DNA from: Eledone cirrhosa
Lineage: Eukaryota
Assembly (NCBI GenBank): GCA_964016885.1
Contig: OZ024743.1
Location: 115,320,001-115,384,000 of the forward strand
DNA: 64,000 bases
Direction of reading: 5' to 3'
Below the pieces are notes generated by a model. That model saw only the letters and a program-made list of their open reading frames with translations, ran no database searches and was not told the DNA's origin. The translations under genes were made by a program, and so were the position numbers. Shown here in pieces: positions 1-44,750 of this stretch (within the stretch, counting starts at the first letter, position 1; every line of letters begins with the position of its first letter).

Positions 1-1282
1 TGCTGTGGTCAGTTGGTGCTGAGACAGTGGTCGGAAGGGCATAGCAGCAGTCGGCGGAATGGTAGGGAGGCGAGGATGGGTAGGTGTGAGAGTTGGAGTG
101 AGGAGGGTGTGTGTGTGTGTGTGTATTAGTAGGGGTGTTAGTGGGATGAGTGAGTGTGGAGCGGGGAGAGAAGGGTGTGTGTGGTTCTATGGAGGGAGTG
201 TGGTGTACTGGTGTGTGTGTAGTTTGGTGAAGAGGTGTTAGTGGGTGTTAGTATACGGGAGGTGGGGAGGGGTGGAATGCAGGTGTGAGTGGGGGTTAGT
301 GGGGGTAGGGTGTGTAGAGTTGGTGGTGTACGAGGGTGTGTGGGTACGTGTGCGTGGGGTTGGAGGGTGTTAGTGATGTTAGTTGCGTGTGGGGGGGGCG
401 GTGAAAAGGAGGGGTGTGTTAGTGGTGTTAGTGGGGGATAAGTGTGGGGGGAGGGGGCGGTCGAACGCTAAAGGAATAAGGGTGGGGAGTTCAGGCCGGG
501 GGGAGTGTGGGTCTGTAAGATGAAGATAGTGCGTTGTTCGACCGTAAGGCGATGGGCGGGTGTTCCGTGGCACTGGAGTAGGCCACAGACTGTGAGATGG
601 CGTGCGGAGTGTCCAGGGCCACCAAAGTGGCGGGCGATGGGGGAACTTCCCCCGAGACGAATATCCCGGAGGTGCTCCGTGACTCGGTCCGCCAGGCGAC
701 GTCCCGTCTGTCCGATATAAGTCGCGCTGCACTCCGTGCAACGAAGTCCGTAGACTAGGTTGGAGGAGGTGCAGCGGAAGGCATGCCGGACCGAGAGAGG
801 GTGGCCGTTGGGACCCTGGAAGGTGGTGGTGTTGGTGATGTGGGGACAGGTGTTGCAGCGGGGCCTAGAATAGGGGAAGGAACCGGGGGGGGGGGGGTTG
901 GGGGGTAGGGAGCTGTGGACGAGGAGGGTGCGGAGATTGCGTGCGCGTTCGAAGGAGGGGAGTGGTGGGGTTGGGAAGATGTGGGAGGTGGAGGGGTCGG
1001 ACTGGAGGCGTCGGAAGAGGTGGCGGATGGTGCGGTGGAGGGGTAAGGTGGAGGGGTGGTAGGTGATGGGGAAGGGGAGACGGAGGGTGGGTGTGCGGTG
1101 GCGTGGGGTGAGGGTGGTGGAGCGGGGGATAGCACGGGCGTGGGTGAGAGCGGTGTGGACGAGAGAGGGGGGGTAACCTCTGCGGATGAAATGGCTGACT
1201 AGGGAAAGGGCCTGGGGCTCGAAGTCAGCATCTCGGCTGCAGAGGCGGCGGATCCTGAGAAGTTGGGAGTAGGGAATGGAGA
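1..1282 (-). mobile_element. 5'-truncated Neptune-type Penelope-like element (RT thumb, Cys linker, GIY-YIG endonuclease, C-rich 3' region running off the window start)
   Basis: ORF 468-1343(-) has SIPYSQLLRIRRLCS, RPRCNTC, LVYGLRCTECSATYIGQTGRRLADRVTEH and PPGLN; similar to the copy at 12.6-16.8 kb; the 5' end abuts (TA)n at 1283. Confidence 0.92.
468..1282 (-). pseudogene. PLE ORF C-terminal remnant (GIY-YIG domain)
   Basis: Open frame with VY...YIG motifs; the first ~20 aa of the listed ORF are microsatellite-derived. Confidence 0.88.
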
Positions 1283-1319
<37 letters not shown>

Positions 1320-2730
1320 TTGGTAGAGGAGATTTAGTGACAAAGTTAGGTTAATTCGGAACTAGATTGATCCATATATAACTTTATCATGAATAAAGAA
1401 CGAATATCTATTCATACTTCTAGATGTGAGTGAGATAGTATATAAAATGCTATTGCAAAGCTGTTAGTCAGAAATTTGTACTAGAGATTATGGCTGTTTC
1501 CTCCTTCTCTAAGGACATTATCTTAAAGAGTATGCGAGATGATACATAAAATTCAATATTTTCAACTACATTATCATTTCAGAAATACAATTTCATTGAA
1601 GACGAATCACATCGTACTGAATTTTATTCTTTTCGCCTTTTAACCTTGTAAGATTTGAAGGTGTTTATCCAACTTGTACGTATTTGAAAGTGTTTATCCA
1701 ACTTCAGTAGATGCTTATTTACAATGTAATATATGTATGGGTCTGTAAATACTGATTGAGTAGTGGGGGCCGCCGTAGTTATATGTGGCGTGTTGTCGAT
1801 ATTTTAGACCTGGTGAATACCTCCCTCCCAACGTATACACATCGCCAATATTTCCAGAGAAAATGATCTAGCAAAAGAATCATACTCAGTACTGGAGTGG
1901 TAATTATTTACCGAACTCGAATGGATGAAAGGCAAGGTTATGGTGAAATATATGTGTATGTAACATACATTATGGAATAATTGTATTACTGATGATATCT
2001 TTCTTTCTTTATTATGCAATACTAAAGTGTGCTGGATAGGCAGAATTGTTAGATAGTCGGACGAATGCTCTGTCGTATTTCTTACGGTAATTGGTTCAAA
2101 TACTGTCAAGGTAAAATTCGTTTTTGATCATTTTATGGTTTGAAAGGAAGTGGATTCACAATATCAATAAAGAGCCGGACAACGTGCTTTGGGGAGTACC
2201 ATGACAAAAAGTGCCCCAAAACGTGGAGAAATGAAGTAACATGGGAAGAATTTACATAATGAAAGCTATACCCATTTTCACAAGAGAAGACATCTCTCAG
2301 CCACCCAAAGTAGGTGGAATCCCTCCCTCTCGGACGGGGAAATGTGACAGGTTTGCATATAGTTACATCCTTTTGCGTTATGTGTTCAAATCACACGGTG
2401 TTTAGCTTTGCCTCTATTAAAAAACATTCCCCACCCCGACATTGTTGGTTTTGTTTCTAAATCAGAATCCATTATTTTATGGTTTAATAAAATAAAGTAA
2501 CAGTCGATTGCTCGATCGATTTAATCAACCATCCTTTTTCCTAAATTGTTGGACTTATATATATTAGAAACCATACTGCATTACTAAGACTTCAGACACT
2601 TTACACTAAATCCAGACGCACTAATATCTGTAAAAACAAACGCGCCGACAGGTAATTCTATATATAAGGGTAATGTTTCCTCCTAGCTGTAAACGAGAAC
2701 TTTAAGGTTGAATATTTCTTGTATTTCTAA

Positions 2731-9557: not shown

Positions 9558-11146
9558 CTATATATAGGGCTTAAAGTTTTGGAAGGAATGTCTGAGGCGG
9601 TGCTGGCAAGTTGCAAACACCTCAGATTTTTTGTTAAGTAGGTTACGGTTGGAGAAGATAATATTGTGTGTCTCTAGTATACAGAGGTTACAGAATTTAT
9701 TAGGTGGTTTGTACGAGGTCGCGCTGCCTATCACTTCCCATTTGAGTGTGTATGGTTTATTTTTAGATTTTAGATAGTGTATGTAGCTAGAAAGTGAGGT
9801 GGAGTTGGCTAGGCTGTGCTTTTTGAACGAGTGGATGTGCGAGTTATATCTGATTTTGAAGCAGTTAGAAGTGGAGCCTACATAGGTTTCTGAAGAGTTA
9901 TTAGTCGTGACTGTGCATGAGTATATGACATCCTTGGTTAGGCATTTTTTATCTAAAGGGCAGGTTCTATTAGCTCTACAGTTACAATTATTCTGTGCGT
10001 TAGTCCGCTGGTTATAATGCAATGCGGAAGTCTGTGTGGTGGATATAGGATTTGGGGTGTTCGGGTTGGCAACCCTGGTGTTATTACTTATACTAGTGTT
10101 ATTTCTATTGTTACTGCCGTTGCTATTATTGCTTGCTACAGTGGTATTTAGAGGGTTTGCATCCCGTTGTGATTTTGTTTGTTGGAAGTAAGAACTAATT
10201 TTACTATTATTGCTGCTAGCTATGTGGTATGCTAAGTTAGGCGTCGTAGAGTATGAGATTTTAATGGTGTTTTTGTTTAAGAGGTTGTGGTACTTGTGTC
10301 CTAGAGGGAAGTTTTTATCTAGTAGTGAGAAGAAAGCCCTAGGTATGTTGGTGGAGACATTTAGGTTGAAGGGAGGGTTGAAAAATGTATTATTTCTTCT
10401 TCTATTTTTGCTTTTAGTGTTTGGTGTGTTGCTTCCTCCTAAGGCCTCACAGTAGTTTCCATGGTAATGGTTACTTCCTGTGGCACCCTCCGCTTTGGTG
10501 TACTTGTGGTTGCTATTCCTATTATTAGATTTCCTCATGGACATGTTGTGCGAGATTATGTTGTAGCTATGTGTTTTCTTAGGTAGGAACTCAATTTCTA
10601 TATTATGGCCCGAGCTAGCTAATGCTTGATTGTAATATTGTGAGTTTTTGCTAAATATGTTTGCGTCATAGGACAGACTAGAGATTCTATTGGACACCCC
10701 CTTAGAGATAGAGTTTAATATTGATCTAGGGTGATTCGACTTGGTATCTACGTAAATAAGTTTCTCATTAGGCTTATGGAAAGGTGTATATATTTTTGAG
10801 TCTAGGTATAGTGTGGCGTCTAGGAAGTTAACATTTTTAGTGTTTTTGTCCATGGTGATACTAAGGTTAAAGTTTTTGAATGTCTTATGCAGTTGTTTTC
10901 TAGTTCTTTCTATATTAAATTTTTTATATTCTATGAGTAGAAGTGCATCATCGCGGTACAAACCACCGTTGAGGTAAGGGAGGTCTTTATGGATTTCATT
11001 GAGGAGGTATAGGCCGACCAAATCAGTGACCTGCGCCGAGTCGCTAGATCCCATGGTTATGTCGAAGTTGTTGTGCGTATCCTTGCGTGTCCATAGTTGG
11101 TCCTCGAAGGTGATTATGGTTTTACGGGCCGCAAGGATGACATCAA
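9558..11146 (-). CDS. Uninterrupted C-terminal ~530 codons of a PLE RT/GIY-YIG ORF (N-terminus lost by truncation)
   Basis: ORF track 9558-11054; frame continues upstream as VDVILAARKTIITFEDQLWTRKDTHNNFDIT. Confidence 0.88.
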
Positions 11147-11667: not shown

Positions 11668-12177
11668 CATTCGTCATATTCATTAAGACAGTGATTTTTC
11701 GTGTCAATATATATATATTACCAAAACTTACAAGAAAACCATTTCATGTTCCAGCCTTCTGCTTTCCGATACTCCTTTACAACAAACTACTTTTTGATCT
11801 CCTAATTCAATCAGGTTTATATTTCAGACGTTCAGATATTTCAGACAGTCATATGATACATTAATTTAAGCATATAATATTTTCATTTAGAAATTATACT
11901 CTTATTTTCTACAAAACGATTACGTCTAGCACAGAGATATTATGATTCTTACTTCTTTACACTTTGAAATATATATCGTCGTTGTGACACAACCTTGTCT
12001 GCCTACCCCAACACTTACACCTCTCCACACCCTACTCATTAAGTTGGTCCGTTTTATTATTTATCATATCTAATATTCTCGTATATATCTTTTCAGGAAA
12101 AGAAGCACGTTTGACCATATCCAGTTATATTCAATGTTATTTCGCCCCCACCCCCACCCCACCCCACTCTCTGCCAC

Positions 12178-12181
<4 letters not shown>
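11668..12181 (+). repeat. ~500 bp dispersed repeat, copy 2
   Basis: Matches 2731-3230; its upstream 11624-11661 also matches 22367-22410. Confidence 0.85.
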
Positions 12182-12241
<60 letters not shown>

Positions 12242-12279
12242 TATATACATAAATATATATATACATAAATATATATACA

Positions 12280-12314
<35 letters not shown>

Positions 12315-12413
12315 GTATATATATATACGTATATATGTATATACATATATATATGTATATATATATATATACATACATGTGTATATATATATACATATAT
12401 ATAAATATGTATG

Positions 12414-12464
<51 letters not shown>

Positions 12465-12549
12465 GTATATATGTATATACATATATATATATGTATATAT
12501 ATATATACATACATGTGTATATATATATACATATATATATATATGTATG

Positions 12550-12580
<31 letters not shown>

Positions 12581-12719
12581 CTGTTTGATTTTCTTCCCCC
12601 TCTCTGCCCTTCATTTGCACTCACCTCTTCGTTGCACCCAACCCCATTCCCGCTACACACCTTCCTTCTCATTCCTCCCCCTGCTTTCACTCCACCCCAC
12701 CTTGCCCAGCCTGAGATCC

Positions 12720-15368
12720 TTTCTCCACCAACTCCACACCAGCGTCGAACTTCTCCCCTTCCACCCTGCTATCTCCCCTCGGCCCTTCTACTCTCCTACC
12801 TTCTCTATTCGCCAAAACCCGGCACTCCAGACACATCCATTTCCTCATCCACTGCCTCCACCTCCACCTTATATCCCTCGGCCTCCGTCTACACTTCCAC
12901 ACCCACCCGACGCTTCCCGATCCTCGCGCCTCCTAATGCGCAACTCCCTCCGCGCCTCCCGCTCCACCATCCGCAAACTTGACGACCAACTGACCCCCAC
13001 CCTCCTCCGCCTTAACTCCGCCTGCGACCCCCTCCTAGCCCACGCCATCCTCCTTTTCATCCAAAACCTCAACCACCACCTCTTCTCCTTCCTCACCTCC
13101 ACCAAAACCCGTAAGCTACACTCACTCCCCCCGACCACCACCATCCACCACCACCCGCCCATCCCTACTACCCCCCTCACCAACATCCCCCCTCACCAAC
13201 ATCCCCCTCCCTCACACCCAAACCCCACCATTTGTTGTCACCTTACCCCCTTTACCACCCCCTCGCCGTACCTGAGCGCTCACTCCTCAGTAGAGGCCCT
13301 CGCTTCATAAGCCACACTCCGCACAGCGATGAGTTCCGCACCCGAACGGGAGTCGAGCGATTCGTGTGACGCACGATGCTACAGGCACATTTCGCTCAAA
13401 CGCCACCGGTTCCGCACGCCCCAGACCCGTTTCTCGCTCAGGGCCAACGACCATCGTCTTGGACGCCGGCCCCAGGGCAAATTAGCACCCTGGACGCGTT
13501 CGTCGATGCCAGCCGTAGCGCCGTAAATCACTTCGACTTCCGCCACCGGTCCCAACGGAATAACATCTCACGGGGCGAACTCCTCGCTCTCCGCTCCCTC
13601 CGTAGCCGAGATTACATCGTCATCAAACCTGCGGACAAGGGAGGCGCCGTGGTGGTGTGGTGCGCTGACCTCTACACGGCTGAAGCTTTCAGATAGCTCC
13701 GTAACCCCCTCTTCTACCGCCCTCTACCCTCCGATCCCACACCCCTCTACCAACAACAACTTTCCTCCACCATCCAACACCTTGTCCCCCCCCCCCCCCA
13801 CTGCTTCCCACCTCATCGTCCGCACCCCCCGCACCCCCACTATCTACTTCCTCCCGAAACTCCACAATCCCGACAACACCAGCCGCCCCATCGTCTCCGC
13901 TTGCAACTGCCCCACCGAACTCATCTCCGCCTTTCTTGACCCCATCCATGTCCCCCTCGTCACCACCCACCCTTCCCACATCTCCGACACCAACCACGCC
14001 CTTCGCCTATTTGTCTCCTTCACCTTCCCACCCGGCCCTCTTCACCCTAGATATCAAGTCGCTCTATACAGTCATCCCCCATGCCGACGGCCTACCTGCC
14101 CTCAAGCACTACCTCAATCTTCGCCCCTCCCTCATCCCCTCCACCCACCCTCCTTCGCCTCGCCGAGCTGGTCCTCATTCTCAACTGTCTCTCCTTCTCG
14201 GGTGAGTTTTACCAACAGGTCACGAGTGTAGCCATTTGGCACAAGAATGGGCCCAAACTATGCCAATCTTTTAGTTGGCCATGTTGAGGCCCAAATCTTT
14301 GCCCAGTACAGCGGCCCCATGCCTGAACTGTACGGTCGTTACATCGACGACTGTATCGGAGCCACGACCCTCACCCGAGAACAGCTCGATTCCTTTCTCT
14401 CCTTCTTCTGCTCCTTCCAAACCTCCCTCCACTTCACCACCTCTATCTCCCCCACCCACGTCCACTTCTTAGACATCTCCGTCGTCTTAGACCCCTCCCA
14501 CCACTCCCTCGTCACCTCCGCCTTCTTCAAACCCACCGACTCCCACTCCTACCTCGACTTCACATCTTCCCACCCTAAACACACTAAACACTCTATTCTC
14601 TACTCCCAAATCCTCATGATCTGCCGCCTCTGTAGCCGAGATGCTGACTTTGAGTCCCAGCCACTTTCCCTAGTAGGCCATTTTCCGCAGAGGTTACTCC
14701 CCTCTCTCGTCCACACCGCCCTCATCCGCGCCCGTGATGCCCCCCACACACCGTGACCCCTACCCCATCACCTACCCCCACCCCAACCCTACCCGTCCAC
14801 CGCACCATCCTCCGCCTCTTCCGACGCATCCAGTCCGACCCCTCCACCTCCCACATCTTGCCAGCCCCAACACTCCCCTCCTTCAAACGCGCACGCAATC
14901 TCCGCCCACTCCTCATCCGCAGCTCCCTACCCACCGACCCACGCTCTCCCCCCGGTTCCCTTCCCTGTTCCAGGCCTCATTGCAACACCTGTCCCCACAT
15001 CACCAACACCACCACCTTCCAGGGTCCCAAAGGCCACTCTCTATCTGTCCGGCATGCCTTCCGCTGCACCACCTCCAACCTAGTCTATGGACTTTACTGC
15101 ACGGAGTGCAGCGCAACCTACGTCGGACAGACTGGATGTCGCCTGGCAGACCGGTTTACCGAACACCTCCGAGATATTCTTCTCGGCGGTAGTACCCCCA
15201 TCGCCCGCCAATTTGGCGGCCCTGGACATTCCGCGCACCACCTCACAGTCTGTGGCCTACTCCAATACCACGGAACACCGCCACCCTCCTCAGAGTCGAA
15301 CAACGCACCATCTTCACCCTACAAACCCACACTCCCCCCGGCCTGTACTCCTCACCCCTATTCCTTAA
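12720..15368 (+). pseudogene. Disrupted PLE RT-GIY-YIG ORF
   Basis: Motifs are spread over ORFs 13376, 13782, 13936, 14081, 14247, 14753 and 15087 in different frames. Confidence 0.9.
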
Positions 15369-16686
15369 GCCTTCGACCGCCATGCCCCCCCCCACTAACA
15401 CCACTGACACACCCCTCCTTTTCACCGCCCAACCCACAACTAACAATACTAACACCCCACATCATTCCCGAGCACCCTTCCCCAACTAACAATACTAACA
15501 TCCCTCCTTTCTTCACCCCCTCCCCTTATCACGCATACGCCCACCGGTACATATACACGCACTCACACTAACAACACACCCTACTACCACCACTAACCCT
15601 CACAGCTACACATCCACTCCCACCACCCCACAATTAATACCACTAACACCCCCTGACCCAACGCACACGAGCACACACACCCACTTACACCACCCACTCT
15701 ACACACCCTACCACCACTAACCCCCACTAACACCCGCATTCACCATACACACACTCACACAAACACGCACACACACACACCAGTACACTACCCCCCCCCA
15801 TGCGCCTCCCCGCTCCGCCCACACCCCCTCTCACACACACACATCCCACTAACACCTCTACTAATACTCCCCCCTCTTCACTCCACCTTTCACACCAACC
15901 CATCTTCTCCCCTGTCCACCGCACCTCCGCACACATTCTGCCATTCTCCCCCACTGCTGCTATGCCCTGTCTCGCTGACCACACCTCCGCACACACAGAC
16001 ACTCAACCCTCCTCCTGCCTTGACCCTCTGACCACTTCCCGTTGCGCACGCACCCCACATCTCCCCTCTTCCAACCAACCCAACCACGTATTGCACACAT
16101 TGGACCTCGCTCCCACGAATCAACTCCATCACAAGAAAATTACCCGGCATCCCACCACATCCGCTACGGAATTACCTTAGGAACTCACCCACGGACATAC
16201 ACTAAAAAAAATGTTTTCCAACACGCCACCTACATCCACAATACGTATAAACACTACACACACGTGCGTGCCACCACATATTTACACACTCAGCCTCCAG
16301 AATCCTCTCATCCCCTCCCCCACCCTCTGACCCCTTCCCATCCACACACGCACACAAACACCGATCTACACCCCATCGCACACACCTTTTCCTGAACATG
16401 CAACCCCGTCCTTCCCCCAACTCGCACATTCATATACACACACACACACAAGTACACCTACACACACACACCACCTTCAGCACTCCCCACTCGGACACCC
16501 CGCCTCCCTCTCCCCACTCAAACCCGCCGCCGCCACTACAGGCCCCACACCCTTCCACCACTTGTTTTATTTTTATTATGCTTTTATATTTATTTTCATT
16601 TGTACCGTTTCCTCTCACCCTCTTTCTTCTAAATGTCTCTCCCCACTCCCCAACACACCCTTGGAACTCTCTTCCCAGACACTTTT

Positions 16687-16720
16687 CGCCTGAAGAAGGG
16701 CTTATGCCCGAAACGTCATC
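16687..16720 (+). ncRNA. Minimal hammerhead of the Neptune-type terminus
   Basis: CTGAAGA-a-GGGC ttat GCCC-GAAA-cg-TC; stem I decayed. Confidence 0.8.
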
Positions 16721-16826
16721 CCCCACCACCACCCCACTCTCAAGAGCGAGAAACTAATAAATATTTGTTCGTACTGCCTCTCTGTTTTGTTCCCGTCCAA
16801 TTTTTCACTATATATATATATATATG

Positions 16827-16878
<52 letters not shown>

Positions 16879-16901
16879 CATATATATATATATATATATA
16901 T

Positions 16902-18414
<1,513 letters not shown>

Positions 18415-28559: not shown

Positions 28560-28838
28560 GTCTGTGTGTGCGTACGTGTGTGTTTGTTGTGTGTATCCAT
28601 ACGTATGTTTGTGAAAATTTACATTCGTGTATATATGCATGGACGTAATAAAACGATGTTATTCTTCTAATGTTCGTATTTTTCAATGTTAAACTCTCTA
28701 TATAAACCCGTAGTGTAAGCATTTAATATTACCAGAGATTAAATGATTTAGCAAAAATTTCTGTTTGTACACATGCATGCACACATACGTACACACACAC
28801 ATACAGGCATGCATACATAGATACACACACATAAATAC

Positions 28839-28892
<54 letters not shown>

Positions 28893-29071
28893 GTATCCAC
28901 AGTAAGTTGTGGGTTCTATTCTGCATGAAGAACTCGATGTAATCCATATGTTGAAAATGTTGTAGGTTAAGATAAATCTCGGAAAACAATAAAACATTAA
29001 AAGGAAAACAGAGTCATGATAAAAGTTAAAACAATGAAATAAAAAATCAAGTCATTAGAGATATACTTCAC

Positions 29072-29207
29072 TGCTTTACGATCGTTTCTAAATGATGATA
29101 ATACATTGAAGCTATACTCAGTAATTGATCTATGTAAGGTTAGTTACAAACTATCAGATAAAGAGAATATTAACTTACATGCATATCACCAGCTGTTTTC
29201 AAAAGCA
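29072..29207 (-). ncRNA. Hammerhead with U3:A8 core and ~107 nt stem II domain (mirror copy 35316-35453 +)
   Basis: TGCTT-TTGAAAA-cagctggtgata...tatcatcattta-GAAA-cgatcg-TA-AAGCA. Confidence 0.72.
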
Positions 29208-29488
29208 ATAATAATTTTATTCAATAATGATTTTATTCAGAATTAGTAGCACGTTAGTATCATGTCCTTATTTGGAGGTAGTTGAAGAACTAACGAATCA
29301 AATTGTTTTTTTCATATGGTGTTAAGATGAAAAGTAATATATGTGTGTATGTGTATGTATGTATATATATATGTTTGTGTGCGTGTATATGTGAGTATAG
29401 GTGTATGAGTGTTTATATATGAGTATGTGCACATGTATGAGGAATGTACATATACTCACACATGTATATATGTATGTGTATGTGTGTG

Positions 29489-29550
<62 letters not shown>

Positions 29551-30105
29551 TAAAAAAATAATGAATAAAACAATGAAACAGTTCCTTATATTAAACAAAA
29601 AAGTTCATTATTTAACGATCGTTTCTAGGACATATATGTGTTAGAATTGGCATGCATATTCAACAGATCTATGTACAAAATTATACAAAATTATACAAAC
29701 TATCAAATATAATATACATACCAACACATACATATGCCGTCTTCAGAAATAATGAAATATATTTATTGATAATAACAACAATTCAAAATTACAGGTCTGT
29801 TTGGGAACAGAGTTCAAATTGACCAATGAAATACACAAAAATATATCAAGTAAATACAGTTAGGTGTGTGTATAAATGTAAGTAACTTCGTTCACAGATA
29901 TGCATAAAAATATATGTTCACATGCATACGCATGTCGAAAAAATGTATGTAAATACAAAAATTCAGGGCTAATGTCTCTGTATGTTTATAATCTACAGAT
30001 AAAATACACATACGTATATAAACATATATACATTCATATATACACACATATACATACATTCATACACACACGCGCATATACACATAAACATACACATACC
30101 CACGA

Positions 30106-30143
<38 letters not shown>

Positions 30144-30307
30144 GTATATATTATTATTATAACTATATGGATATTAAGGCGCACACATAAACACTGCCAC
30201 ATATATTTACATCTAGATGCAGAAGTAGGTAAAGGGGGTCAGTAATTACTAAGGGTGTCAGACAACTGCCTATTTATAAAATGTATCTATAAATTTAGAA
30301 ATAAAAA

Positions 30308-31693
30308 GGTGGTTTATATCGTGATGACTGTCTTCTTCTTTCCAACAACCTTAGCCTCTCAGAAATAGAAAAAAACAAACAGCTTATTAGAACTTTCCTT
30401 AAAGACTATTATAGTCTTCATATTACTTTTGAAAACACAAGTAAAGTAGTTAATTTCCTAGATATAACTTTAGACTAAGCTACGGGTATCTACCAACCTT
30501 ACCATAAACCCAACCAAAATTACACTACATACACTCACAATCTAATCACCCTAAATCTATCCTTAAAAACCTTGCATATAATATATCACTTAGAATTTTT
30601 AACCTTTCGTCTAACCAAGATGTATTTGATAAAAATGCGACCTTCTATAACGAAGCTCTAGATAGAAGTGGCCACAAAAATAGATTAGAATATATACCTT
30701 CTACTAAAAATACTATAAACATACAACCTAATATTACCAACAAACACCAAATGAAAAGTACACACCTAAATGCCACCCACACTATACCCCAAAATACCAA
30801 CAACTCCTCTAATATAAAGTATAGTAACTCTCAAAAAACTACTCATCATACAACTCTAATAAATGTTAATAATAAAACTCCTTATAAACAAGATAAAACA
30901 CCTAAATCAATAAATCTAACTAAAAATGTGCGTGGTGAGGTCATTAACATTAATCCTCCTAGTAAACATCACGATACAACCTATAAAAATAATAAACAAC
31001 ATAGAAACCGTAATAGACGAATTACTTGGTATAATGCTCCATTTAATTTACAAATTAAGGATAATATTGCTAAAAAATTGTTTTATATCCTAGAGAAAAA
31101 CTTCCCGCCAAACCACAAATACCATCAAATCTTAAATAGGTCAACAGTTAAATTCTCATACTCAACAACCAAAAACATAGAACAAAATATAAGTGCCTAT
31201 AATGCATATAAATGTAAAAATACCATAAGTATACCACCAATACATCAAACTAACCATAATATCTCCTCAAATACAGAATTAACGAAAGGTTGTAACTGTA
31301 GAAACAAAGCAAACTGCCCATTAAAAGGAAATTGTCTTGTTAACAACATAGTTTATAAATGTAAAGTTAAAACTAAAGATTCTATTTGCTCATATATAGG
31401 AGCTACTTCTAACAATATTAAGGTAAGGTTTAATACCCACAAACATAGTTTTAAAAATGCCGCACTGGCTAATACAACATCTCTAGCAGAAAAAATTAAT
31501 AGTTATAGAAATAAGAATATAGAATATGATATGACCTGGAGTGTGCTCAATATAATAGAAATGAATGTAGATTATGTTCCCAAGAACTATTTGAAATAAT
31601 GAAATCTAAGGATATCCTATTAAATAAGCTACATGAATTAATTATATCGTGTAATCATAAACTGAGAAAAACATTTAAATATTATAAACCTAA
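30308..31693 (+). pseudogene. Naiad-type RT C-half plus GIY-YIG, disrupted
   Basis: GGLYRDD at 30308, VNFLD, SNHP, RITWYNAPF, CNCR..CPL..CL, IVY..YIG, CRLC, LLNK..CNH. Confidence 0.9.
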
Positions 31694-32540
31694 TTAATAA
31701 TATATATTTTAGAAATTAATATATAATTTAATTTAAATGTAGTTAACCTATAACTTTAATTTAATTACAATTCTACTACAGATGAGATTAAAAAATATTG
31801 TGTAATCATAAATTGAGAAAAACTTTAAAATATTATTAACATAATTAATATATACTTTGTAAATTAATTTATAGATTAATTTTAGTTTATTTAACCTTTT
31901 ATTAAAATTCCTTTACAGATGAAATATAACAAAATATCGTGTAATCAATAACAGAGAAATATTTTTTAATATTATAAACCTAATTAATGTACAATTTAGA
32001 AATTTATTTATAAATTAATTTTAATTTAGTTAACCTATAATTTAAATTTAATTAGCTTAAAATTAAAATTCTAATACAGATGGATTGCAGAATATCATGT
32101 AATCGTAAACTGAGATAAACTTTTAAATATATACCTAATTAATATATTCTTTACAATTAAATATATATATATATATTAATTTTAATTTTTGTTAACCTAT
32201 AATTATATTCTACTATAGATAAAATACAAAATCTGCTTTAATTATTATAAACCTAATTAACATATACTATAGAAATTAATATATAATTTTTAATTTAGTT
32301 AACCTATAATTTATATTCTACTACCGATGAAATACTTGATTTGGTTTTCCCTATTACTAAATTCATTTCCTAATATTGATACCATAATGTTAATATTTTT
32401 AATTTAGTTATGCTATAATTAATACTCTACTACTGTTTAACTTCAAAATTCCGCTTCAAATATTATAAACCTAAGTAGTATACAACTTAGAAATCAATAT
32501 ATTAACTATTTTCAATTTAGTTAATCTATAATTAATAGTC
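31644..32540 (+). repeat. Degenerate ~140-160 bp tandem repeat built from the ORF end plus 3' flank
   Basis: atatcgtgtaatc-like starts at 31644, 31795, 31934 and 32092; partial units near 32240 and 32460. Confidence 0.8.
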
Positions 32541-32822
32541 TACTTATATTAAAATGCATAATTTTGCCTTCTTTCTTACATTTCCTAATACTGAAACTAC
32601 TATGTAAACACATATTATGATCTAAATGCAGATTAATATTCTATGTTCCTTGAAGCCTATATTTACTATTTCCCACTAATAATTTTAATCCCCCCCCCTA
32701 TAATTATTTGTATTTGTAAGCGTGGATGTATGTATGTGTATGTAAGTATGTATGTATGTTTGGGTGTTTGTATGTGAGTATAAAAATACATATGTGCGCA
32801 TGTAAATAAGTGTGTATGATTG

Positions 32823-32855
<33 letters not shown>

Positions 32856-33008
32856 GTATATATATGTGTATATATATGTCTATATATATATGTGTGTATG
32901 TATATATGTATGTGTGCGTGTGTATGTGTATATATATTTGTAGAGTTGTGTGTATGTATATATATATATATATGTGTGCATAATTGTCTGACTGTATGTA
33001 TTTATTTA

Positions 33009-33085
<77 letters not shown>

Positions 33086-33507
33086 ATGTATATGTGTGTG
33101 TGTGTATATATATTTATGTGTATGTATATATCTATATATATATATATATATATGTGTGTATGTATATCTCTTTATTTATGTATGTCTGAGTTGTGTGTGA
33201 GCGTGTAGTTGTATGTGTATATACATACATGGATATGTGTATGTGTGTGTATATATACGTATATGTATGTGTGTGTGTGTGTATATATATGTGCGTGTAT
33301 GTATATATATATATATGTGTGTATATATGTGTGTATATATATGTGTGTATATGTATATATGTATATGTATATATGTGTGTATGTGTATGTACATATATGT
33401 GTATATATATATATGTGTGTTGTGAATATATGTATATATATATGTGTGTATGTATATGTGTCTATGTATTTATATATGTATATGTATGTGTCTCTATATA
33501 TATATGT

Positions 33508-33576
<69 letters not shown>

Positions 33577-34189
33577 TATGTATATCGGTGTGTATTTTAT
33601 GTATGAGTATATATTTTACTTGTTTATTTCTTTTTAATATATTTCTTTTTATTTCTAAATTTATAGATACATTTTATAAATAGGCAGTTGTCTGACACCC
33701 TTAGTAATTACTGACCCCCTTTACCTACTTCTGCATCTAGATGTAAATATATGTGGCAGTGTTTATGTGTGCGCCTTAATATCCATATAGTTATAATAAT
33801 AATATATACATATGTATGTGTGTGTGTGTGTGTGTGTATGTTCGTGGGTATGTGTACGTTTATGTGTATATGCGCGTGTGTGTATGAATGTATGTATATG
33901 TGTGTATATATGAATGTATATATGTTTATATACGTATGTGTATTTTATCTGTAGATTATAAACATACAGAGACATTAGCCCTGAATTTTTGTATTTACAT
34001 ACATTTTTTCGACATGCGTATGCATGTGAACATATATTTTATGCATATCTGTGAACGAAGTTACTTACATATATACACACACCTAACTGTATTTACTTGA
34101 TATATTTTTGTGTATTTCATTGGTCAATTTGAACTCTGTTCCCAAACAGACCTGTAATTTTGAATTGTTGTTATTATCAATAAATATAT

Positions 34190-34342
34190 TTCATTATTTC
34201 TGAAGACGGCATATGTATGTGTTGGTATGTATATTATATTTGATAGTTTGTATAATTTTGTATAATTTTGTACATAGATCTGTTGAATATGCATGCCAAT
34301 TCTAACACATATATGTCCTAGAAACGATCGTTAAATAATGAA
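34190..34342 (+). ncRNA. Hammerhead with canonical core and ~114 nt stem II domain (mirror copy 29604-29756 -)
   Basis: TTCATTATTT-CTGAAGA-cggcatatgtatgtgttgg...ctaacacatatatgtccta-GAAA-cgatcg-TT-AAATAATGAA; perfect 10 bp stem I. Confidence 0.82.
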
Positions 34343-34539
34343 CTTTTTTTGTTTAATATAAGGAACTGTTTCATTGTTTTATTCATTATTTTTTTAATAT
34401 TTTATCTTGACTCTGTATTCCGTTTATCTTTCACCGAAAGTGATTTTTGAATGCATCTCTTCTTTCCATGATATCCGGATTACATTGAGTTCTTCATACG
34501 GATTGGACACTACCGTAAACTCTTGGTAGATTTATCTAC

Positions 34540-34572
<33 letters not shown>

Positions 34573-35499
34573 AGTGTGTGTGTATATATATATGTATATA
34601 TGTGGATATAGATATGTATGGATGTGTATGTATATGATTATATGCATATGTGTAAATGTGTATTTAGATTTGCATCTATTTGTGCGTATGTATATTTTTG
34701 GTTGGATATCAATTTAACTGTACCTCTCTCTATATATAGTGTGGGTATATGCACTTTATAATCTATGAAATGTATGTGTTTTAACTATGCCAACATGTAT
34801 TTATCTGAGTTTAATTATGCATAAACATACTTGATAGTATTTAAGAGCGTATCATATGCTATATTATACTAAATGCAATTTACCACACAGTGTTGGTTAA
34901 GTTGTATATTATCGCATTACTGTATTTCATTATCTCATTATAATTTTCATCTTTTAATATACTATCTTTCCTAGCCATAACCTTAATTTATATTCACCTT
35001 AAAACTCAATACAACACTAATCACCATTTATTTTGACATTTCTTTTAAATTAACTATACCAGATACATTCAACTATCAGTTTGACAATCACTTTCCTCCT
35101 AATATCTTTTATGCCAAATCTACTATTAACACCCTTCAACCATTCCTTTCAAAGAGTCATGACCTCAACTAAAGTATATTACTTTTCATCTTAACACCAT
35201 ATAAAAAAAAACAAAAACAATTTGATTCGTTAGTTCTTCAACGTCCTCCAAATAAGGACATGATACTAACATACTAGTAATTCTGAATAAAATCATTATT
35301 GAATAAAATTATTATTGCTATTGAAAACAGCTGGTGTTATATGCATGTAAGTAAATATTATCTTTATCTGATAGTTTGTAACTAACCTTACATAGATCAA
35401 TTACTGAGTATAGCTACAATGTATTATCATAATCTAGAAACGATCGTAATGCAGTGAAGTATATCTCTAATGACTTGATTTTTTATTTCATTCTTGTAA

Positions 35500-35542
<43 letters not shown>

Positions 35543-36325
35543 GTATGTATATGTATATATGTATATGTATATATGTATATGTATGTATATGTATATATAC
35601 ACACACATAAATATATATGTGCGTGTATGTGTGTGTGTATATATATATAATATGTATTAGAAGTTTCTGTGTTTTTCTTTCATTTTCAATGGAATAGTAA
35701 TACACACACCAACATTGAAAGAAAGCCTGTTCTACAGACAGGAACAAGAAACAAATATTTAACGACGATAAGAGCGAGAGAAATATAAAAATCTTATTTC
35801 ATTTTATTTAATTATATTTTATTTCATTATATTAAAAAATAATTGTAAAATGTTTTAAAATGGAACTTTGAAACCTTTTAAAACAAATTGTTTCTAAGTC
35901 ATTGAGAATTAAGTATGGAGAAATTTTACCCCAAGTTGAGTAGTTTTGACGCTAATATGTCTCACAGGAAACCACTTCAAAACCATTGAGGGTTATTTAC
36001 AGAAAACCTTAGCCCCGTGTACGTATACAGTTAGAGCGTTGGGTAGAATACGGCTCTTTCCAGTGTCTGAGTTCAAATCCCCGTCGAAATCAAATTTTAT
36101 TCTTTTCATCGTTTTGAGATCGATAAAAAAGTTTCATAACAATAGTGGGATCAATTCTTTTTCTATAACTATTTCATACTTCCTCTGCCGTTTTCTCATT
36201 TGATAAGAGAAATATGTGTTCAGATCAGGACATTCGAGGGAGTCTCTCTAGTGTAATGTGTAGTAAATAATTCTGAAAAATCTGTACTACAGTATATCAT
36301 GTATACTTATGAATATGATTGACAA

Positions 36326-42315: not shown

Positions 42316-42519
42316 GTAATTGATCAAAAGAACATCTATTTTATTAATATTTGTATTTTAATATTAATAACTCTGGAAAATTATTTTGCTGTAGAGTACT
42401 TCCAATCTACTGTAAAACTCATTCTTTGACATACTCATTGAATCTTGTTTAACTATTTAAAATAATGCTCCCAATTGGTTGAGCGCTTTTCTATACAATA
42501 GATTGCATATTCAATAAAT

Positions 42520-44750
42520 ATGGATTTCTTAAACTTCCCGACTTCCCTCAAAGATATACCCATACCTTCAAATGAAGAATACATGAGGAAAACTATAGAA
42601 CAGACAAACTCTTTTATTGGAAGATTGAGATGGAGAGATTTTCATTTCGAAAATAAAGATGCTGAAAGAAAAACTAACAACAATCATTTCGAATCTTTAT
42701 TTAAATCAAGAAAGAATCCCCCCTCTTCTGGAGATTTTTGAAACAGAAATTCTCGGTATAATAAAAAAAAAATTAAATTTAGGAAAAACCCATATATAGG
42801 TCACCAATACCTCAGAACTCTAAAAGATAAAATCAATGAAATTAAAAAGGTTAACAAAGTATTGGTTAAATCGGACAAAACTAATAATTTATATGGGATA
42901 AGCAAAGATGAATATAACAACTTGATTTTTAAAGAACTTAGGAAAAATTACAAAAAAGCCCCGGCTGAGGATCTTACTGAAGAAGCCTACAAATTAATTA
43001 CCAATTTAAGAATAGAAGGAAGAACTGAGCCATTCTTACCTAGACAGCCGAGGATTAACCTGAAGGATCATAAAAGAAACTTTAAGGAAGAGATGCCAGT
43101 TAGACTGATTGCTCCATCGAAATCGGATATAGGAGTAATCAGTAAAAACATCATAGATAGAATATTACCCACTCTTAAATTGAAATCTAACTTGAGCTTA
43201 TGGAAAGATACAAACGCAGTCATAGAATGGTACACGAATATAGAAGATAAAAAAAAACATAAATTCATCCAGATGGACATTAGTAGCTACTATTCTTCCA
43301 TAACACCTACCCTTCTAAATAAGGCCCTTTCATATGCTTATAAGCATACTTATATAAGCACGGATGAAATCAATATAATATTAACAGCCAGAAGAACTCT
43401 TATTAACTTCAACAACGAATACTGGACACGATCAGATAGAGATAGAAACTTTGATATCACTATGGGTGCATCCAATTCCGCGCAAATCACAGATCTTCTG
43501 GGAATTTTCATATTAAACATGACAAAGAGAAAACTGCCGGAGATTACCGGTGGTTTATATAGGGACGACATTTTATTTACGGTGGTCAAACACAATATAG
43601 AACTAAATAGAGTAAAGAAAAGTATATTAGAATTCTTTAAAATGTACGACCTTAAATTAGAAGTTGAAAATGTTACTAAAATTGTTAATTTCCTAGACGT
43701 TACCTTTAACTTAAACACTGGCTTCTATTACCCTTTTCATGAGCCCAATGAAAACTTAAACTATGTTAGTAACCATTCAAATCACTTTAAATCTGTAAAA
43801 AAAAGTTATAGTAAATAGTGTGCAAAAACGAATTAATAAAATATCAGCCAATAAGGATATATTCGATGAAAATGCTGAATACTACAACAATGCGTTAAAA
43901 AGAGCAGGATATACGAATCATAAAGAATATGTAGATAATAATAATCCAAGTATTATACTTAATAGAAATAATAACATATATAAGTTAAACTCTAATAATT
44001 ATAATTCAAACACCCATATGCCAAATAAATCGAGGATACGAACTAGAACTAAATCAGTCATATGGTTTGCCCCCCCCCCCCCACCTGCTTCTGTCGAGGT
44101 TAAAACACCAATTGCAAAATTATTCTTTAACGCTCTTGACACCTCTTTCCCTACTCAACATAAATACCATTACATTTTTAACAGACATACCGTTAAATTC
44201 TCCTATTCTACAACTATGAACATGGCCCAAAACATTGCCAAATTAAACAATAAAATCCTAAAACAAAACCAAGATATTGATCTTAATAATAGAGTTAACA
44301 TAAATGATACTAAACCAAAATGTAATTGTAGAAATAAAACTGAATGCCCTTTGCAAAATAATTGTCAAGATAGTAATTTGGTTTATAAATGCACCGTAAA
44401 AACTGATCACAACACATACAACTACACAGGATCAACTTCTTCCACATTTAAAGCCCGATTTGCGAAACAAAAATGCTCATTCTCGAACTCACAGCTCATA
44501 TGGTCATTAAAAGAGAAAAATTTAAAATACTCCATTCTTTGTACAAAACTTCGTAACTGGAATTTACCGTAACTCTAGGATATCAATTAACTGCACGCTC
44601 TGTAAAATGAAGACCCTGTTGATTATTAACTATGAGACCCTAATTAACAAAACAAGTGAATTATTATCTAGTTGCCTCCATAAAGCTACATCCACATTCT
44701 TAGCCTCCCACAAAACGAGAAAAACAGAGAGTCTAGCATTAAACAATTAA
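42520..44750 (+). pseudogene. Naiad-type RT-GIY-YIG ORF, complete but frameshifted
   Basis: SLKDIPIPS..RLRWR, KSDKTNNLY, LKDHK, DISSYYSSI, FDITMG, GGLYRDD, WFAPP, CNCR..CPL, CTLC, LINKTSE..CLH. Confidence 0.92.

Follow-up and report, generated by a model that had tools for sequence, protein, structure and literature searches.

We analyzed a 64,000-nt stretch of the genome of Eledone cirrhosa (GenBank assembly GCA_964016885.1, contig OZ024743.1, positions 115,320,001 to 115,384,000 of the forward strand; hereafter, the window) and found that two hammerhead motifs within it, HHR-A and HHR-B, have a stem II of more than 100 nt that is predicted to be structured and to hold an internal loop shared with related families in the same genome. 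By sequence, these are hammerhead motifs with predicted self-cleavage 3′ of position H17, located in the pseudo-long terminal repeats (pLTRs) of two sister families of Penelope-like retrotransposons (PLEs) that have Hydra-clade motifs, herein families A and B. The novel part is the long structured stem II with its shared internal loop, not the covariation between core positions 3 and 8 by which the two motifs differ. No earlier report of PLE hammerheads with a long stem II, or of the loop itself (RNU/UAG), was found in the literature searched, with most subscription papers and figure supplements lying outside that scope.

Long stem II domains are abundant and predicted to fold

Across the long-stem families, stem II was a predicted rod of 72–116 nt, being 107–116 nt in the subfamilies of the window and their closest relatives and ~100 nt in subfamily A2. 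A loose pattern comprising the core and an 85–115-nt spacer matched 12,637 times genome-wide, as opposed to three times for the reversed control, and stem II measured at least 55 nt in 153 of the 172 distinct motifs recovered from fetched loci. One sampling pattern fell below its control (32 vs 81 matches) and was used solely to sample families. Fifteen subfamily consensuses, from 141 copies after exclusion of 12 deletion variants or unassigned singletons, were then folded. Stem II folding z-scores ranged from −2.2 to −8.4 in 12 of these, and stem II folded weakly in the remainder (F3, +0.1; I1, −1.9; I2, −0.8). Within families A and B, changes in the rod mostly retained pairing via wobbles. 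Families C (loci L118-L147) and K (L012, L116, and L277) also had a long stem II, in their case with two hairpins on a multi-way junction and without the UAG loop.

A conserved internal loop in the distal part of stem II

The inner motifs of stem II that a first-pass annotation of the window had noted as shared by HHR-A and HHR-B correspond to a predicted helix of 3–4 bp, an asymmetric internal loop, 5′-RNU(N)/(N)UAG-3′, and a capping hairpin, the loop of which has a 10-nt duplication in HHR-A. By a fixed rule, the internal loop was present in 10 of the 15 consensuses (A1, A2, A3, B1, B2, D, E, F, F2, and J), and the same rule was satisfied by 0.3–3.9% of shuffles of the consensuses. The loop occurred in eight lineages, some with protein identity of just 32–45%, which is the level between A/B proteins and those of D, E, and F. 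Moreover, it was recovered in two later-found families that were reached by an independent route, specifically in both copies of family N under the strict rule (null ~1%) and in five of six copies of family P with the rule relaxed by one wobble pair (null 4–7%). The distance between core and loop was 28–43 nt, differing by family.

The closing helix occurs as three Watson-Crick sets, gat/atc, tcg/cga, and ttg/caa. For the module of families E, F, and J, an unconstrained MAFFT alignment of 15 sequences yielded the same helices, with 7 of 11 pairs changed on both sides and a covariation score of 0.466 vs 0.237 for shuffled pairs (0 of 500 shuffles as high). In register, 93% was paired, compared with 30–44% for slid controls. 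When the isolated modules were aligned with MAFFT, A/B were shifted by one column relative to the other families, and pairs across clades were therefore taken from anchored motifs. Together, the folding z-scores, the loop rule, and the covariation indicate that the structure of the insert is conserved, as had been anticipated in the proposal that it might be a separate functional RNA module. The separateness is less well borne out, in that all instances lay within a hammerhead stem II, no search having been made elsewhere. The SECIS (selenocysteine insertion sequence) and K-turn motifs were rejected as identities for the module, their G.A order and helix length being unfit; moreover, in the open frame of family A, the conserved cysteines are encoded by Cys codons rather than by UGA.

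Integrity and homology of the hammerhead motifs

All four motifs that the first-pass annotation had located, that is, HHR-A, HHR-B, and a mirror copy of each, were present with the cores and stem II lengths it had given (Table 1). The elements G12-A13-A14 and A15.1-U16.1 were found, along with an NUH triplet that is GUU in A1 and A3, GUA in A2 and B, and occasionally GUC. Sense orientation in the pLTR and a short palindromic helix III, as in PLE minimal hammerheads, were also observed. Three helices surround the core in A and B, but not in the mirror copy of HHR-B at 35316, where stem I positions 1-2 are A.A and U.U and which is not an intact hammerhead. Folds constrained to the hammerhead were above the minimum-energy fold by 1.2 (A) and 3.0 (B) kcal/mol. 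In Rfam, the window had no match at gathering score, and when E-values of up to 5 were allowed, region 28800-35600 gave 81 matches, none of them to a hammerhead family and all microsatellite-driven and of microRNA type; a miss of this kind is expected because stem II is so long.

HHR-A and HHR-B are homologous as judged from their alignment score of 123, which exceeds those of 300 shuffles (65 ± 8.5, maximum 88), and their downstream tails were at 69% in alignment. The homology proposed earlier therefore held. The stem I sequences, previously described as different and self-consistent, do pair in each motif, but are not unrelated, since two compensatory pairs set them apart (AU to GC in 12 of 28 rows and UA to CG in 11 of 28), and the copy at 35316 is broken.

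The 3:8 pair differs between families

When positions 3, 7, and 8 were unconstrained, the family A pattern had 5,601 genome matches, and C3:G8 was present in 96 of the 100 listed, the other four being singletons. The corresponding family B pattern had 905 matches, and among the 100 listed, U3 was present in 100 and A8 in 98, with N7 being variable (A 59, C 38, U 3 by manual count). The compensatory difference inferred from the two window motifs is thus a family-fixed one, and the bases at positions 3 and 8 are paired in B. This pattern is that of a hammerhead core under selection in master elements. By itself, the swap is not new, being already known for PLE hammerheads; U3-A8 replacing C3-G8 has been described in PLE minimal hammerheads, with ~1,300 matches in Schistosoma (PMC4209133; here and below, statements on cited work refer to parts of each source).

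U3:A8 was also present in two further long-stem families, J and N. A tree forcing B, J, and N together was rejected (delta lnL 70, approximately unbiased test p ~1e-55) in a test that used an alignment anchored on A, took the B row from a decayed copy, and assumed that pLTRs travel with their own open reading frame (ORF). From this rejection it follows that U3:A8 arose at least twice, and it may represent a tolerated substitute for C3:G8. Separately, the short-stem hammerhead of locus L092 (13 nt) also has a U3:A8 core and might mark a third origin of the swap.

Two sister Penelope-like families in the window

The region comprises a family A insertion, with inverted pLTRs that are 98.6% alike, nested in a family B remnant, with inverted pLTRs that are 92.5% alike (Table 1). 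The mirror copies are the usual inverted pLTRs of PLEs, a point missing from the first-pass annotation along with the assignment of the motifs to the pLTRs of two PLE families, and belong to inverted repeats of 768 nt (HHR-A) and 332 nt (HHR-B) at these respective identities. A degenerate 139/109-nt tandem repeat was noted within the family A 3′ untranslated region (UTR) at window positions 31644-32544.

Table 1. Positions in the window of the hammerhead motifs, their parts, and the elements that carry them.
Feature	Position	Strand	Remarks
Family B inverted pLTR	28886..29341	-	long end 191 nt past cut; shared tail motif 28925-28945
HHR-B, type I minimal hammerhead motif	29068..29211	-	9-bp stem I
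HHR-B predicted cut	after A29077	-	triplet GUA
HHR-B stem II	29089-29195	-	107 nt
Distal stem II module, HHR-B	29127..29155	-	
HHR-B core UUGAAAA	29196-29202	-	U3:A8
Family A inverted pLTR	29542..30308	-	short end 73 nt past cut site
Mirror HHR-A	29604..29756	-	within inverted pLTR
Family A ORF	30305..31694	+	5′-truncated and broken; reverse transcriptase (RT) end, linker, CxCX5C motif, C-terminal endonuclease
Family A 3′ UTR and pLTR	31695..34542	+	139-nt tandem repeat, microsatellite, HHR-A; long end 210 nt past cut
HHR-A, type I minimal hammerhead motif	34190..34342	+	whole motif
HHR-A stem I	34190-34199 paired with 34333-34342	+	10 bp
HHR-A core CUGAAGA	34200-34206	+	C3:G8
HHR-A stem II	34207-34320	+	114 nt
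Distal stem II module, HHR-A	34242..34280	+	3-bp helix, predicted AGUU/UAG internal loop, capping hairpin
HHR-A GAAA-CGAUCG-U	34321-34331	+	
HHR-A predicted cut	after U34332	+	triplet GUU
Family B remnant, 3′ part and pLTR	34586..35506	+	older; short end 58 nt past cut site
Mirror HHR-B	35313..35457	+	decayed; first two stem I pairs mismatched

The elements encode a single RT-endonuclease ORF with a C-terminal endonuclease, and longer copies have DKT, CxCX5C, CxxC, and CxH, with RWK as RWR; the window ORF fragment of family A had no significant match in Pfam. Family B has its own ORF, with 54–61% protein identity to A, and the two clustered in both trees (ultrafast bootstrap 100 in one and 95 in the other), which comprised families of this genome only. 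Units were 2,986 nt in family D and ~5.4 kb in family A, owing to the long 3′ UTR of the latter. The host genome (3.0 Gb) is rich in microsatellites, and most of the element ends listed abut a microsatellite, as for (TA)n insertion.

Element ends fell into two groups past the predicted cut, near +73 (24/46) and +210 (19/46) in family A, and near +58 (16/43) and +190 (24/43) in family B, in counts that include some copies fetched twice. One short and one long end were present in 12 of 14 inverted pairs, and two fixed ends, with one of each kind per inverted pair, are the PLE "tail" signature. Where copies lie in tandem, the ORF started 360 nt (A) and 268 nt (B) past the cut and was preceded by seven and five upstream ATGs, respectively. 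Attachment of the motifs to RT-endonuclease ORFs, rather than to short non-coding tandem units, sets them apart from non-LTR retrozymes.

A possible role for the loop in timing self-cleavage

In folding predictions, the 8-nt palindrome of helix III was unfolded alone and paired with a second copy. Helix III would be too weak in the monomer, and therefore cleavage probably needs a dimer or the help of a protein, as in other PLEs, of which the hammerheads have been reported to cleave poorly in vitro (PMC4209133) and, for an Anolis PLE, solely with the protein of the element (PMC11167929). In the Anolis element, reverse transcription begins on uncut RNA downstream of the ribozyme (PMC11167929). 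Uncut RNA may likewise be the main template for reverse transcription here, because genomic copies extend beyond the cut. The pair at the base of stem II (10.1:11.1) is a C.A mismatch in families A, B, C, and D, A.A in E, and U.U in J and K. Of these, U.U is reported as tolerated (PMC3088659), and no report on C.A was found in the literature searched.

Our best reading, to which we give even chances and which draws on analogy with these systems, is that the loop belongs to a selected RNA module, likely bound by a protein of the element, on a ribozyme that depends on a dimer or on protein. The distal loop would then likely be a binding site for the element's own RT-endonuclease, and protein bound there would couple cleavage to assembly of the ribonucleoprotein, helping to time self-cleavage. 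The least certain step is recognition of the loop by the element's protein, as opposed to a host factor or a further segment of RNA, although the position of the loop at different distances from the core, depending on family, suits a portable binding site. A stronger version, in which the RT binds the RNU/UAG loop and so decides between cutting and copying, making this a protein-gated natural ribozyme with an uncatalogued RNA module built into stem II, is tentative and on balance doubtful.

Several points weigh against a selected, protein-bound module. The loop was absent from all copies of families C (0/17), K (0/2), I1 (0/2), and I2 (0/2) and from the single F3 and single M, and short-stem families have been amplified too, such that the loop is not required by all Hydra-type elements. 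Support for a single clade of the long-stem families was indecisive (56 in one tree and 34–59 in the other). Additionally, the loop rule was formulated after families A, B, and F had been inspected, the pair-shuffle control for covariation ignores relatedness, and in A and B alone the loop-closing pairs are nearly invariant, with no covariation. As for the ribozyme, the C.A at 10.1:11.1 departs from the G10.1-C11.1 consensus, which is highly conserved albeit not universal, and the lowest-energy B fold, 3 kcal/mol below the hammerhead fold, has part of the core paired, two features that make activity uncertain. Finally, the proposed partner of the loop is guessed from analogous systems.

Alternative readings of the insert

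The loop could instead be an RNA-RNA tertiary docking site that folds onto stem I or onto a dimer partner, replacing the contact between loop I and loop II and raising protein-free cleavage. The usual short loop II is indeed missing, and the variable second base with fixed U and A is partly like sarcin-ricin-type motifs (PMC8450098; the mapping is our own), but we consider docking unlikely, given that the variable core-loop distance favors a portable site over a fixed geometry and that stem I varies in sequence from family to family and offers no evident conserved receptor. That the module recruits host translation or export factors, enabling the ORF to be translated despite upstream AUGs or an uncapped end, appears very unlikely. 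In viruses, type I hammerheads located in the 5′ UTR promote translation independent of a cap (PMC13725137), and in A and B the motif is in a 5′ UTR with 5–7 upstream ATGs, yet only one to three of these occur in D, E, F, J, and N, and the module is 5′ of the cut, so that it would depart on the upstream fragment unless the two pieces stay joined through stem I. The long stem II might also be a by-product of fold-back errors in reverse transcription, passively inherited and without function, since these elements often show AT-rich inverted repeats and template switches and several families are without the loop. This possibility is most improbable and largely contradicted already by the persistence of an asymmetric loop with a fixed UAG and closing helices of three Watson-Crick sets among proteins that are 32–45% identical, as well as by retention of the loop in each of the five subfamily consensuses of A and B, even as bases are gained or lost in the apical loop.

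A spliceosomal intron, which we regard as quite unlikely and as a weak reading, would be marked by the insert in one of two ways, either as a 42–54-nt GT...YAG inside stem II or as a donor in stem II used with an ORF-proximal acceptor. The latter would take out the cut site and the upstream AUGs (seven ATGs in A and five in B), and 5′ UTR introns beside the hammerhead are kept in PLEs (PMC4209133, PMC2377424, PMC8557442). There are strong donors in A (G/GUAUGU) and B (U/GUAAGU), a GUA lies 17–21 nt past the core in most A, B, C, D, E, and F copies, and an AG directly precedes the conserved near-ATG motif in A, B, D, and P. However, GT...YAG of 40–56 nt arises in 15–52% of shuffles, J, N, and P retain the loop without GUA at 17–21, and the J helix reads AC...GU for GU...AC, thereby keeping the pairing and losing the donor. 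Precise GT-AG excision was seen in 0 of 17 short-stem copies (three B and 14 A), though PLEs keep genomic introns. The ORF-proximal acceptor was rejected as a candidate, the conserved motif there being able to pair with upstream GCUC and J and N having no AG before it. No joint at the GT-AG sites of family A was found in the contigs of four of six runs, and no joint at a pLTR-ORF junction in those of one of these four; the kind of run was unrecorded, and neither result bears on expression or splicing. One contig had a loose end that coincided with the donor of A (34224), but its continuation was not found in the genome, and it was dropped.

Why nearly all PLEs retain a hammerhead is an open question. 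The one PLE reconstituted in vitro requires its protein for cleavage, and a conserved loop on a long stem II would offer a specific handle on that link, and one that can be mutated. A natural panel is formed by the families described here, with long or short stem II, presence or absence of the loop, C3:G8 or U3:A8, and two independent origins of U3:A8. Thousands of hammerheads in such genomes are suggested to be missed by Rfam models and by searches that allow only a short stem II, and should the tentative protein-gated ribozyme be real, more than 12,000 such sequences in one genome would escape standard hammerhead models.

Other hammerheads and repeats

Additional hammerheads were noted in the window and at other loci. 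In some short-stem families, C replaces U4 (CCGAAGA or CCGAUGA core), as at window 8110 (-) and loci L054, L058, L091, L099, L128, and L242, and another Penelope-like ORF is attached in at least two cases (window ORF 9567-11033). At window 42270 and 46247 (+), hammerheads with a 20-nt stem II closed by the canonical G-C belong to a decayed Penelope-like element of near full length, which has direct pLTRs and an ORF at 42472-44699. An inverted pair with a 31-nt stem II, at window 26493 (-) and 27346 (+), represents a further family.

A TYGAGC motif is conserved ~25–50 nt upstream of the ORF start in both long- and short-stem families (L007, L068, L266, L286-L315), and can pair with an upstream GCUC in most families; one version of the pattern had 427 matches vs 17 for its control. 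In L066:3693-7349, an open frame of 1,219 codons has RT-like and endonuclease-like motifs by eye, and probably represents a further Penelope-like element that has inserted into a copy of B. GC-rich, strand-skewed stretches at window 1-2000 (+0.51) and 12001-18000 (−0.43 to −0.59) are probably other repeats.

Comparison with known systems

The closest counterparts are the PLE minimal type I hammerheads (Cervera and de la Pena 2014, PMC4209133), which share with those herein the location in a pLTR, a minimal palindromic helix III, an extra base after A9, predicted dimer dependence, and U3-A8 covariation. They differ in having a helix II of 6–8 bp, whereas here it is a 72–116-nt rod with a conserved internal loop, and the present motifs have a stem I of 9–10 bp in A and B and C.A at 10.1:11.1. 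Hydra-clade PLE hammerheads (Craig et al. 2021, PMC8557442) have in common with ours the protein motifs, the (TA)n targets, a hammerhead near the 3′ end, and a stem II of which the base is frequently mismatched, in many cases as U.U. In the published table, however, all 26 Hydra rows have a stem II of ~24 nt or less, including the one octopus family, and the longest stem II in the table, ~53 nt, is that of a spike-moss PLE-X. Moreover, that clade is generally <3 kb, in contrast to the ~5.4 kb unit of family A.

The hammerhead of Anolis Poseidon (PAc; Frangieh et al. 2024, PMC11167929) likewise has C3-G8 and two fixed ends downstream of the cut. Its ORF starts inside stem II, whereas here the ORF begins 268–360 nt past the cut, and the Penelope tail is 30–40 bp (PMC11167929), compared with two ends ~135 nt apart in our elements (window 34405/34542 and 35506/28886). 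The sarcin-ricin or loop E motif (PMC8450098) is akin to the RNU/UAG loop in its asymmetry, its variable second base (G, A, or U), and, in a mapping that is our own and not a structure, a fixed U opposite A and a purine-purine end pair; it has a sheared A-G pair on U-A where the present loop has U.U or G.U, and the motif is therefore not matched. Lastly, the non-LTR retrozymes (PMC7229834; bioRxiv 10.64898/2026.07.22.740005) also place type I hammerheads in animal repeats and are related to PLE pLTRs, but are short non-coding tandem repeats, whereas the hammerheads herein reside in the pLTRs of protein-coding elements.

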